Shown: one piece after another, positions 657 to 32,560 of the stretch
How positions within the stretch are numbered: position 1 is the stretch's first letter
Layout of the letters: the number at the start of each line of letters is the position of its first letter
Source of the DNA: Eledone cirrhosa
Taxonomy: Eukaryota
DNA length: 64,000 nucleotides
Direction: 5' to 3'
NCBI GenBank assembly: GCA_964016885.1
Contig: OZ024747.1
Span: 10,540,001 to 10,604,000, forward strand
The notes under the pieces: model-generated
The model's database searches: none
The model's input: the letters and a program-made list of their open reading frames with translations, nothing else
Told to the model about the DNA's origin: nothing
Translations under genes and position numbers: made by a program

Positions 657-849
657 AACGAAGGAAATGTGGTAAGGAACCAGGTGGACCATAACGCACC
701 AAAGTACTCAATACTTGAGGTAGTAGAGTGGGTAATAGGAACCAGTAAGACCCCGACAGCTGAGCTCAAGCCGTTTCGACGGCTAATTCTGACGGCTAAT
801 TCCGTCGAAACGGCTTGAGCTCAGCTGTCGGGGTCTTACTGGTTCCTAT
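657..849 (-). mobile_element. Fold-back element family A, copy 1 (hammerhead 3' half; Penelope-like end) in a (TA)n tract
   Basis: Inverted arms 735-782 and 802-849; GAAA-CGGC...GCTG-TC (stem III plus GUC site); (TA)n on both sides; homologous to 9427, 12647 and 32395. Confidence 0.75.
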
Positions 850-1066
850 ATATATATATATATATATATATATATATATATATATATATATATATATATA
901 TATATATATATATATTTATATATGCAGCATACACACGCACGTGGGTGTGGGTCTCTACAAGTGATAGTAGCAGATATACAATATATATATATATACATAC
1001 AATATATATATATATATATATATATATATATATATATATATATATATATATTGTATATATATATAT

Positions 1067-1205
1067 TGATAATAAGTATGAACGAGGTGTCAAATTTTCA
1101 TTAAGTTTATTCAGGTGTGACACGCGTTTCGCGATTGATCGGCTGAAGGTTCGATCTCTATCGATCGGGCCCGACTCTGGAATCAAAAGCTATCACTTCA
1201 ACCTG
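1067..1205 (-). mobile_element. Degenerate Penelope-like end with hammerhead 3' half
   Basis: Minus strand reads ...atcgc-GAAA-C-gcgt-G-TC-acacc followed by a tail abutting (TA)n; the 5' CUGANGA is decayed. Confidence 0.4.
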
Positions 1206-1458
1206 TGTGTCGTTTGTTTTATTTTTGTTTTATTTTTACACATACACACACATCCATATATGTATATATGTGTACCCGATAGCTTCTTTTCATATATGTG
1301 TGTGTGTGTGTGTGTGTGTGTGTGTGTGTTCAAATTGAAATCTAGTGAGGGGATTTCAAAGGGCTCACCTATTTCCCTATGTATATATATTTCAGTGCAG
1401 AAGTAAATGATAAAGTAGAAAATCAAACTTTCCAGTTGTTTTCCGGTTTCTTCTACAA

Positions 1459-2063
1459 CTACAACGGTACGTGATGGGGCCCACCGACAGCCCCGGCAGA
1501 CAGAATGGAGAAGGCATTTCCCCGGTGGACGGCAAGGGAGACGCGCTGGAAAAGCCACTCCAACTCGTGGGGCTCACACCTGCGGCTGGCCAGCTCAGTG
1601 CCTATGGTGGTGAGTAAGGAGGTAGCCCTGGGGCCGAGGACACCAGAAGTATGCACTGCCAGGGGTGCGACCGGTATTTGAGGAGTTTGGCCCCCTCAGC
1701 CCGACGTGCAGCAGAACCTGGGTCAGTCGCAGACTGCACGAGGTTGCGGCTGCAGAAAGTGTCGGTGCAAGTGGCATCCCAGACGAGGGGTTTGCCACCG
1801 CGGAACGGGAAGATGGTCATGCCATCTGGCCTTTTGCTGTCCTCCCGATCCAGCCCCAGCGGCTCGAGCTGGGAAGGGAAGCCTGCAGCGTCCAAGCCAT
1901 GCTTAATGACCTCGTTGAGGGCAGTATATCGTGGAATGCGGCCGGCACTGTGGCGACAGGAAAGCGGGCGGAGGCCGAAATAGTCCACGGTGGAACCGCA
2001 GCGACATCGGTGTGGCTGGCAGATCCGGAGGCCGAGTCTCAGGGAAACGCCGATGCGCTTTAA
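1459..2063 (-). mobile_element. 3' fragment of a CRE-clade non-LTR retrotransposon (Zn-knuckle plus restriction-like endonuclease), frameshifted
   Basis: Translation CRCGSTVD..LSCRHSAGR...EPLGLDREDSKRPDGMTIFPFRGGKPLVWDATC, then in another frame SGVLGPRA...WLFQRVSLAVHRGNA. These match PD-(D/E)xK RLE C-termini of CRE-like LINEs. Confidence 0.85.
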
Positions 2064-2561
2064 GGTGAGATTAAACAGAAAATACATGTATGTATGCATG
2101 TATATATGAGTGTGTATATATATATATATATGTGTGCGATTCGATTTTGGTGGACCAGTGACGGATTAGGTGGGTTGGGGCGGTGTTTTGACTGGGCTGG
2201 AGCCAGAGATTCAACATATTTAATAAAGGACCCTAAATAAATTATTTTGGTTACCATAAATAATACGCCAAGACCCCGATTAAATTTTCAGTCAGGGGTC
2301 CCATATAAGTTTAATCGGCCAATTGGTGTCGGCAGATACTCTAAGGCCTTGAATAATCACCTCCCACGCTTATTAAATTTTGCTAATCTATTCCCGGAGA
2401 AATATTATTGTAAGTGATTCATATTGATACAACAGCTGGAGAATCTAATAATAATTTTATTTTACATTAAAAATACATTATATACGATAAAAAAAAAAAA
2501 AAGAACCTATATTTACGAACGTACAGTATACAATTACCGACCCCCATCGCTTAATTGGGAC

Positions 2562-2654
2562 CGGAGGAGTGATGCCGAGCTGTGAAATCTTGCATACATT
2601 AATTTTAACTCTTCTTAATAACTGCATTGTTTCTTTCCAGGGACTATGTTGAAA
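2562..2654 (+). mobile_element. Internal fragment of a mariner-type MITE, ending where the satellite begins
   Basis: gagctgtgaaatcttgcat...ctttccagggactatgttgaaa matches the interior of the MITE at 33784-33988. Confidence 0.6.
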
Positions 2655-30079: not shown

Positions 30080-30782
30080 TCATCACCACCACCACCGTCA
30101 CCACCACCACCGTCACCACCACCACCGTCACCACCGTCACCACCACCACCACCGTCACCACCACCACCGTCACCACCACCACCACCGTCACCACCACCAC
30201 CGTCACCACCACCACCGTCACCACCGTCACCACCACCACCACCGTCACCACCACCACCGTCACCACCACCACCGTCACCACCACCACCACCGTCACCACC
30301 ACCACCGTCACCACCACCACCGTCACCACCACCACCGTCACCACCACCACCACCACCACCACCGTCACCACCACCACCGTCACCACCACCACCACCGTCA
30401 CCACCACCACCACCACCGTCACCACCACCGTCACCACCACCACCGTCACCACCACCACCGTCACCACCACCGTCACCACCACCACCACCACCACCACCGT
30501 CACCACCACCACCACCGTCACCACCACCACCGTCACCACCACCACCGTCACCACCGTCACCACCACCACCACCGTCACCACCACCACCGTCACCACCACC
30601 ACCACCGTCACCACCACCACCGTCACCACCACCACCACCACCACCACCGTCACCACCACCACCACCGTCACCACCACCACCACCACCGTCACCACCACCA
30701 CCACCGTCACCACCACCACCGTCACCACCACCACCACCGTCACCACCACCACCGTCACCACCACCACCACCACCACCACCAT
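30080..30782. repeat. (CAC)n array with CGT interruptions
   Basis: Pure triplet repeat; it produces the poly-Pro, poly-Gly and poly-Val ORFs. Confidence 0.95.
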
Positions 30783-31301
30783 TATTGAAGCATGTTGGTA
30801 ACACGGAAGCTGTCAACAATATTAGTAAGAACATAAGAGAGAAAGAAATGCCTGGTTGGGTGGTTGGAGAAGGAGGTATACCTAAGGAAAGCAGATTGTG
30901 AGTTGATGGACCCTGTAAACCCCTGGTAGAGTCAGTCAGTCATTGAGGAGCTGTCATGACATTCTAGGACATTTCTTTAACCTGGTGCAGCCCTCTGCAG
31001 GTATGAACACAACCGATTCCTTTCAGAGAAGGTGAGAGTGATAGAGAGGAAATGAGAAAGAGATATAGAGGAAGAATCGACCCCAATACAGAACTGGTAC
31101 TTTTTTTATCGACCTTAGACGAGTAAGTGCGTCCGTGTGCACGTTCGATTCGTGGTGGGCCTCGTGGACAAGATATCAGAACAGCGACGGTACAAAGTAC
31201 GACAGACCTATCCAACCCATATTAATACGCCATGTGTGTGTGTGTATATATATATATATATATATATATATATATATATATATATATATATATATATATA
31301 T

Positions 31302-31612
31302 ATAGTTATGTAATAAACAACATAAGGCAATTATTTCATTTACAAGTGGTTTCTTAAAAGCAAAAAAATGTTGCTTTCAATCATCAGAATGAAAAAATCC
31401 TGGCGTATTTATTGACTTTGGATTTTAAAATCCAAAGTCAATAAATACGCCAGGATTTTTTCATTCTGATGATTGAAAGCAACATTTTTTTGCTTTTAAG
31501 AAACCACTTGTAAATGAAATAATTGCCTTATGTTGTTTATTACATAACTATTAAGCTCTGTTACCTACATAGAGCACTCTTTTTTCCTGGACTTTTCCGA
31601 CGGAATTACTTC
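31302..31612 (+). mobile_element. Spacer-less 250-bp palindrome (31302-31551) plus 3' tail between (TA)n tracts
   Basis: Axis at tttt|aaaa (31426/31427); contains CTGATGA-tt-GAAA; tail carries a tagagcact motif. Confidence 0.8.
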
Positions 31613-32076
31613 ATATATATATATATATATATATATATATATATATATATAAAAGTCAGTAACTTTACACACTCACTCACATATTGCTACAATAAGCTCA
31701 CTTCTCAATCATAAAGTCCTTTCAACATATACTGTATGCTAAACATTTATTACTCTATTAGATGTTCCAGCCGTCAGACGGAGGCCATGCTGGGGCACCG
31801 GCATTAAGTTATTAAATCCTAGAAATAAATTATCAAAATATCTTTAATTACTTCCATGAGTTCAATAAACAATAATAATTAAAAAATCAACATAAACTAT
31901 AGAATTTCTCTTGGGTAAACTATTTGTCAAAACGCAAATTTCCCAGTTCAATGTTATATATATATATATATATATAATATATATATAATATTTTTTACTG
32001 CCAAATCAACCTCCCAAATGCAAGGTGATTGAAAGGTATGTCGTATCTATTTATTTATAAGACTGTTTATATTGTA

Positions 32077-32138
32077 TTTTGTCTGAAGAAGGCATAACAT
32101 ATTGTTAATATGATATCCCTGAAATATATATAACGAAA
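32077..32138 (+). ncRNA. Type I hammerhead ribozyme motif (family D)
   Basis: ttttgt-CTGAAGA-aggcataacatatt-gtt-aatatgatatccct-GAAA-TATATA-TA-acgaaa; compensatory G-C in stem I where other copies have A-U. Confidence 0.85.
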
Positions 32139-32394
32139 TAAATATGGTTTTATAAATATAGTTTCCATTTATTTAATATCATAAATATACTCCAAATACT
32201 TGTTGAGTGCTTTTATATCAGTTATAAATATTTACTCGTTGTTAACCCAACAATTTAAATATAACTTTCCCTGTGTGTATATATATATATATATATATAT
32301 ATATATATATATATATATATACACACACACAGTTATAATTATCCTGGTATATAGAGTGAGTGAAAGCAGGGTCGGGTTTAGTTGGGGGGGGGGG

Positions 32395-32560
32395 GGACCA
32401 TAACGCACCAGAGTACTCAATACTTTGGGTAGTAGAGTGGGTAATAGGAAATTGTTCAAGATCCCGACGGCAGAGCTCAAGCCGTTTCGACTATTTTAGT
32501 CCAGAAATAGCCGTCGAAACGGCTTGAGCTCTGCCGTCGGGGACTTGAACAATTTCCTAT
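32395..32560 (-). mobile_element. Fold-back element family A, copy 4
   Basis: ataggaaattgttcaag...cttgaacaatttcctat arms around GAAA-CGGC..GCCG-TC. Confidence 0.75.

Follow-up and report, generated by a model that had tools for sequence, protein, structure and literature searches.

We analysed a stretch of 64,000 nucleotides (nt) from Eledone cirrhosa (assembly GCA_964016885.1, contig OZ024747.1, positions 10,540,001 to 10,604,000 of the forward strand), hereafter the window, for a family of short palindromic repeats, called family A, and for the Penelope-like element (PLE) from which they derive. Four asymmetric head-to-head palindromes of this family lie at 657-848, 9427-9617 (in the opposite orientation), 12647-12842 and 32395-32559, where the preliminary description of the window had correctly placed them. 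In all four, the sequence GAAA, hammerhead stem III, GUC and a tail of about 83 nt are present on one arm only (the tailed arm). Positions within the element are numbered with the hammerhead cleavage nucleotide, C17, as 0. The parts of the four copies are as follows:

657..791, minus strand: copy 1, tailed arm, element positions -36 to about +103 (tail at 657-735)
792..801, no strand assigned: copy 1, junction, a templated duplication of about 10 nt of element sequence
802..848, plus strand: copy 1, tailless arm, -27 to +20, terminating in the TA tract
9427..9477, minus strand: copy 2, tailless arm, about +20 to -34
9479..9617, plus strand: copy 2, tailed arm, -39 to the tail end, with C17 at 9518 and an extra base at 9478
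12647..12778, minus strand: copy 3, tailed arm, -37 to the tail end
12779..12782, plus strand: copy 3, junction of 4 nt, in which 12782 is an untemplated G adjoining the A at -40
12783..12842, plus strand: copy 3, tailless arm, -40 to +20, reaching 3 nt further inward than the tailed arm
32395..32496, minus strand: copy 4, tailed arm, starting from -33, with the tail truncated at about 32392
32495..32559, plus strand: copy 4, tailless arm, -43 to +20, sharing 2-3 nt of microhomology with the tailed arm and reaching about 10 nt further inward

Each palindrome has TA tracts on both sides, except copy 4, whose tail is cut at about 32392 by other sequence. The motif CUGANGA is found in none of the four (0/4), and the apex is different in each. 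The observation that the arms match within a copy and differ between copies was borne out (mean distance, 6.4% within and 13.6% between copies). By BLAST, the window has no close copy beyond these four; the search gave three weakly matching related repeats at about 22.3-22.6 kb. In the region 22335-22620, a diverged tailless arm resembling that of family A occurs as three direct repeats, with TA tracts of unequal length between them.

In the 3.0-Gb genome that holds the window, a 16-mer from the tail has 49,258 exact matches and its reversed control has none, so that the palindromes are not due to chance; a 65-nt motif of the youngest subfamily has 4,639 matches (reversed control, 0). Extending the long copies upstream led to a coding sequence for reverse transcriptase (RT) and a GIY-YIG domain. 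Among the 130 scored matches listed in a protein search were many open frames of about 784 codons, some of them in arrays, and one natural array, with a period of 3,528 nt, has an unbroken 784-codon RT and GIY-YIG frame. Copy 1 has a tailed arm that matches codons 1-36 of the natural frame of locus L273 at 100%. The motifs read from the sequence of the 784-codon frame are a first Met at 68, RWR at 104 (a conservative variant of the RWK of the Hydra clade), DKT at 184, YRDD at 415, CxCX5C at 639, IY...YIG at 659, CNLC (CxxC) at 737 and CKH (CxH) at 765; a CCHH-like pattern had no match in this frame. Searches of Pfam and PDB with the open reading frame (ORF) of the element gave no hit, and those listed among its 2,216 database relatives are about 40% identical and essentially unnamed. 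By its motifs, the parent fits an endonuclease-containing (EN+) PLE of the Hydra clade, as the available text on that clade describes it (PMC8557442), and it shares with the clade the (TA)n targets, tandems of the pseudo-long terminal repeat (pLTR), an inverted 5' copy and an optional tail. Seven loci (L273-L278 and L290) hold head-to-tail arrays of three or four full 3.5-kb units with 99-100% identity and open frames; the family therefore looks recently active. Two further loci (L291 and L292) are near-perfect 3-kb palindromes in which an arm ending at +20 is paired with one ending at +103, with the inner ends 187 and 16 nt apart. At L276:6270-8088, a 55-nt piece of the ORF is repeated more than 30 times in tandem where the element is truncated at its 5' end.

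Full copies of the element show, in order, stem I, UUGANAA, the 5' strand of stem II, a loop of about 32 nt, the 3' strand of stem II, GAAA, stem III, GUC and stem I. Among the 95 scorable full regions (of 97 found), which are related copies located by search, U3 occurs in 87, A8 in 95 and G8 in none, while position 7 varies freely (A, 32; G, 32; T, 13; C, 6). The unconstrained fold of a natural copy is a three-way junction of -27.7 kcal/mol with an unpaired core. Judged by sequence, the family A motif is thus the 3' half of a real type I hammerhead with a covariant U3-A8 core; such covariation is already known from the PLE hammerheads of Schistosoma (PMC4209133, in the part available). An Rfam scan of the window, where family A is represented by halves only, gave no hammerhead among the 150 matches listed, which were microsatellite-driven, miRNA-type and below threshold. 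The hammerhead of the preliminary description was therefore real, as a half, but not the hairpin gacggcta...tagccgtc that it took for stem II: this hairpin is absent from full-length copies, and what forms its 5' strand is the inverted arm. The true 5' strand of stem II lies at about -78 to -67, upstream of the loop, and the apices fall within the 3' part of the loop. Full-length copies do lack CUGANGA, which had been offered as grounds for abandoning the proposal, but only because their core is of the U3-A8 form. The hexamer GAGCUC in hammerhead loop III of L273 is self-complementary, so that two RNAs could pair through it; it is relevant to the question whether the arms of a palindrome are templated by one RNA or by two.

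Two samples were used for the counts. Sample 1, which is not limited to a single subfamily, consists of 99 of the first 100 tail-motif matches on contig 1; of these, 72 are short palindromes, 10 are long copies and 17 are short solo copies or others. The references differ from older copies, so that the end positions in this sample are uncertain by a few bases. Sample 2, the young set, consists of 91 of the first 100 matches of the young subfamily: 58 simple palindromes, 20 copies without an inverted arm in view (9 long, 11 short) and 13 complex or long cases, which were set aside. The samples have 12 matches in common and, pooled and de-duplicated, comprise 176 insertions and 296 arm ends. Two sets of 30 loci were kept apart from the junction counts; a recurrent G-to-C arm difference in one of them was put down to query bias. 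Sequencing runs of unrecorded kind were used solely to check end positions. An assembly artefact was ruled out by the diverged arms and by the same ends in independent runs.

The outer ends are fixed. The tailless arm ends at +20 in 55/58 young palindromes, and the end of the long copies is at +20 or +103, whether an inverted partner is present or not. Since solo long copies also end there, +20 is a start site rather than a microhomology met by chance, contrary to the earlier suggestion that the short arm ends at about cctat by merging into the TA tract. When 30 loci were picked by their +20 end, all 28 scorable ones (two had the partner out of view) had a tailed partner and none a tailless one, and +20 was paired with +103 in 11/11 long inverted insertions with both ends in view, as read from a table. 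This pairing of one of each rests on the 30 loci and the samples, and tailed-tailed pairs in L088, L011 and L018 are exceptions to it. Short tailless arms were never found without a tailed partner (0/27), and short tailed arms stood alone in 11/91 cases. Both arms have the same stem I haplotype in 31 of the 52 scorable palindromes (expected, 6.6; maximum in 10,000 shuffles, 15). Homogenisation of the arms after insertion was judged minor, older arms differing by up to 23%. Note that the TA tracts would mask any target-site duplication.

The inner ends meet a sharp wall. Among the 116 arm ends of the young set, 92 lie at -33 to -44 with the mode at -40, 2 lie beyond and 22 downstream, and the read depth of an independent run, which is a measure of depth and not of copy number, drops about 25-fold across the wall. 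The A of TT/TC-A-GTC, a sequence similar to the Initiator consensus, occupies position -40; lesser stop sites are found at -35 and at +1, the hammerhead cut. An untemplated G adjoins arms ending at -40 in 11/14 junctions with inserts, on both arm types, and the tailless arm bears its own extra G in 7/10. With -35 included, a position added after the data had been seen, the G is found in 15/18 cases at -40 or -35 and in 8/26 elsewhere (p = 0.0008). In solo arms abutting TA, a G precedes the A at -40 in 16 of 77 distinct cases (from the first 100 of 1,284 matches), compared with 2/42 in control solo arms truncated in the tail (all matches; p = 0.03); the corresponding values from the first 100 of 481 matches are 8/26 at -35, 1/23 at -36 and 3/23 at -34, with 19 at -37 not scorable. 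For family C, where the G had been set as a prediction, the base was G in 16, C in 0, A in 9 and T in 52 of 77 cases (from the first 100 of 590 matches; at most three sites may be local duplicates). Family F, in which the G is templated, was left out of this test. By eye, the walls of families B, C and D also lie at pyrimidine-pyrimidine-A, upstream of intact cores. In the available parts of the respective papers, capped full-length L1 insertions are marked by an extra G (PMC11702581) and the Penelope pLTR has an internal promoter (PMC2377424). Position -40 is therefore likely to be a capped RNA polymerase II start inside hammerhead loop II.

The minor stop at +1 was examined in young solo tailed arms (51 matches, 30 sites, with 5 tiny palindromes set aside). 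Of 25 arms starting at -4 to +4, 15 start at +1, the base after the cut, or 13/23 without possible duplicates (p of about 1e-4 or less under an even spread). Both arms of L178 end at +1. This class suggests that ribozyme-cleaved RNA sometimes serves as template.

The junctions between the arms are diverse. There are 50 distinct junctions among the 58 young palindromes, five junction types recurring two to four times; the earlier statement that each palindrome was made anew, and not spread as a unit, agrees with this. The arm reaching further inward is the tailless one in 25, the tailed one in 21 and neither in 12 of the young palindromes (window copies 3 and 4 are of the first kind), and 34, 24 and 14, respectively, of the 72 in sample 1, where a difference of at least 10 nt favours the tailless arm by 21 to 8 (p = 0.024). 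In L102, L129, L132, L091 and L302 the two arms share no sequence, so that later flipping of the spacer is no explanation for them. The junctions have 0-2 nt of microhomology, mostly 0-1 nt, or they have inserts, the longer of which are largely copied from the element. Low microhomology with templated inserts is as expected of end-joining. The palindromes thus have the features of twin priming: both arms begin at target DNA, each can hold unique sequence and the centre is end-joined.

Five sibling families form the same kind of palindrome, with apices upstream of intact cores (small samples, scored by eye), so that the position of the apex is not a property of stem II. Two larger family D palindromes, at 22903-23277 and 29312-29756 of the window, have intact CUGAUGA/CUGACGA cores in both arms; the wall of family D is at TC-A-TATG, some 65 nt upstream of the core, and some copies have an extra G. 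In a family B palindrome at 35280-35436 the canonical core is intact and the tailless arm very short, and apices of this family lie just upstream of the core. Family F (for example, L025:2534-2685 and L142) is a second family with a U3-A8 core (UUGAAAA) and has its apex about 35 nt upstream of it. Family C has a core-like variant, CAGAAGA/CAGAUGA. Further CUGANGA...GAAA motifs occur in the window at 11631, 23575, 32083, 32682, 34211 and 35310, some of them matching TA-targeting sibling families.

We propose, with a probability of about 0.7, that the palindromes are short insertions of the PLE made by twin priming, in which both complementary DNAs (cDNAs) were extended to the 5' end of the RNA and then end-joined. 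The enzyme of the element would cut both strands of a TA tract, and one cDNA would be primed at +103 and one at +20 of the RNA, from opposite strands. Both would run off the RNA at its likely capped 5' end, -40, whereas arms ending at +1 would derive from ribozyme-cleaved RNA. A single RNA, or two from one source locus, may template both arms, the enzyme that started at +103 trailing and displacing the +20 cDNA, and the apex would be made by host end-joining of the two cDNAs head to head. Observed in the data are the parentage, the two fixed outer ends with one of each per insertion, the sharp wall at -40, the excess of G and the type of junction. In the proposed model, the catalytic core is absent from the palindromes because it lies upstream of the RNA start, and not because TA microhomology deleted it, as had been suggested.

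Several points weigh against this proposal. Copying one RNA twice needs strand displacement, which is putative here, and the arms of 2-3/52 palindromes have different haplotypes. The solo-arm tallies were counted by hand; the majority of solo wall arms lack the extra G, and with the control restricted to truncations starting with A, the excess is not significant (24/103 and 2/25, p = 0.10). The inward difference of at least 10 nt is 10 to 3 in the young set alone (p = 0.09), and the peak at +1 sits at a run of G, which could stop RT for other reasons. Furthermore, none of the 41 ORF-linked pLTR occurrences, which are not independent as arrays were counted per unit, begins at the wall, and 37 run seamlessly upstream without a scar. 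A plain linear messenger RNA from -40 is thus not the template of the long copies unless there is a circle, an efficient jump or upstream read-through. Long copies must come from circles, from efficient jumps across the shared -40 to 0, or from read-through RNA; otherwise, the wall must be a road-block where assembly takes place. A circular form of PLE RNA has been suggested (PMC6765202, in its available part). Tandem units within loci differ by a mean of 1.3 and units of different loci by a median of 4, and the partner was closest or tied in 22/27, mostly ties, which is too weak as a sign of a circular template.

The road-block is the best of the alternatives, and we hold it to be unlikely. 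Twin priming would still take place, but the protein of the element, or the tertiary fold of the hammerhead, would sit on loop II at the place of ribonucleoprotein assembly and stall both enzymes, the RNA continuing upstream. That none of the ORF-linked pLTRs, further along the RNA, stops at the wall would be explained, and the family A wall does lie inside the folded hammerhead. However, a road-block predicts neither the untemplated G nor the pyrimidine-pyrimidine-A context, and the sibling walls, always upstream of the core, vary in their position with respect to the ribozyme.

The mechanism of the preliminary description seems highly improbable. A cDNA begun at the tail end would fold on stem II or on nearby microhomology, prime itself and end by TA microhomology, with later flips or deletions blurring the junction. 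This would account for the common haplotype of the arms and for short tailless arms never occurring without a tailed partner while short tailed arms do stand alone, and such palindromes have been interpreted in print as products of self-priming, there on an antisense template (PMC3846280). However, folding back requires that the whole of the tailless arm, and a loop besides, be present in the tailed arm, with a primer stem at the junction. The apices do fall in the 3' part of loop II, but the geometry of a fold-back on stem II, with the loop kept as required, was found in 0/58 young junctions and any strict fold-back in 2/58; the sibling apices upstream of intact cores also contradict it. The young copies with a longer tailless arm have arms almost exactly matching the reference, the tailless arms bear their own extra G in 7/10, the pairs sharing nothing have no repeat left to flip, and solo long copies, too, have their end at +20.

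The mechanism put forward for rotifer Penelopes, self-priming on an antisense template, has an equally slender chance of applying here. It accounts for the head-to-head polarity and for intron retention in other PLEs (PMC3846280, as far as available), but both arms end at signatures of a sense-strand 5' end (the extra G and the cleavage site at +1) and start at two fixed sites of the sense RNA joined to TA. A DNA element resembling a miniature inverted-repeat transposable element and spread as one fixed palindrome, suggested by the very high copy number, short length, TA flanks and recurrent junction types, is refuted by the 50 distinct junctions, the asymmetric arms and the identity of the sequence as the pLTR of an RT-encoding element.

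Both the element itself and its anatomy, with an inverted copy and a tail, belong to a known kind. From the available text on the Hydra clade (PMC8557442), the likenesses are a single short ORF with a C-terminal GIY-YIG, DKT, a CxCX5C linker, no CCHH, and CxxC and CxH near the C end, together with (TA)n targets, a pLTR hammerhead, partial tandems, an inverted 5'-truncated copy and an optional tail. Unlike that clade, the present element has RWR for RWK, a 3.5-kb unit with a 3' untranslated region of about 1.1 kb, a U3-A8 core with a 32-nt loop II, and a tail of about 83 nt instead of 30-40 nt, and 72/99 of the sampled tail-bearing copies are tiny ORF-less palindromes. The PLE hammerheads described in PMC4209133 (available part) are likewise of type I with a U3-A8 core and a palindromic loop III. 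Non-LTR retrozymes, as far as described in the accessible text (bioRxiv 10.64898/2026.07.22.740005), are also non-autonomous pLTR-derived sequences with a type I hammerhead, but they form direct tandem arrays with whole ribozymes, whereas here the pairs are inverted and have only the 3' half. Identity with these retrozymes was rejected, as the short copies are inverted and lack the core and the tandem arrays carry the ORF.

As regards mechanism, the available part of the in vitro study of Poseidon PAc (PMC11167929) reports two internal RT start sites bounding the tail, an AT-rich target, cutting and extension of both strands, and a predicted dimer; the start sites around the tail and the AT-rich target are alike here. 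In that text no difference in start site was seen between the strands, ribozyme cleavage was not needed and no RNA reads ended at the cleavage site, in contrast to the one-of-each sites per insertion, the wall and the minor class ending at the cleavage site in the present family. L1 twin priming (PMC11702581, available part) is similar in that the second target end primes internally to give an inversion, the junction is end-joined and an extra G is attributed to the cap; however, the L1 segments abut with a deletion or duplication of 1-10 nt and the internal site varies, whereas here it is fixed. Since both cDNAs copy the same stretch from a fixed internal site, the product is a palindrome, unlike in L1. 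Rotifer Penelopes (PMC3846280, available part) have head-to-head palindromes at the inverted junction, a tail on one pLTR and an Initiator-like pLTR motif; they were explained by antisense self-priming, whereas the statistics of the present junctions suggest two cDNAs that were both primed at the target and templated by sense RNA. No statement on twin priming or strong-stop products for PLEs was found in the literature searched, and supplements and older subscription papers may hold earlier versions. That literature appears to contain no description of short palindromes produced en masse with one priming site of each kind, a wall probably defined by the cap, and a class ending at the cleavage site.

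Other repeats in the window are a 50-nt satellite of about 130 copies at about 2518-9000, a 48-nt repeat at 17100-18300 with an inverted relative near 49970-50271, a long array of a 9/12-nt repeat from 20156, and a pair of 217-nt inverted repeats at 51395-52178, which are 90% complementary, 350 nt apart and without TA flanks.

The origin of the inverted pLTR with a one-sided tail and hammerhead cutting in vivo are stated as open questions in the available texts of PMC8557442 and PMC11167929. Tens of thousands of junctions in one genome form a natural experiment on the PLE mechanism: they speak for twin priming rather than for self-priming as published, allow the transcription start of several families to be predicted with single-nucleotide precision, and point indirectly to ribozyme cleavage. 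Palindrome formation of this kind also fills the genome with short inverted repeats. More tentatively, PLEs may copy like miniature retroviruses, in that a promoter inside the hammerhead and the ribozyme cut set the RNA ends and a dimeric enzyme always fires from both sites; tens of thousands of strong-stop palindromes would arise from linear RNA, and seamless long and tandem copies would require RNA that is circularised or terminally redundant. If this were the case, the genome would record both hammerhead cleavage in vivo and circular templates.

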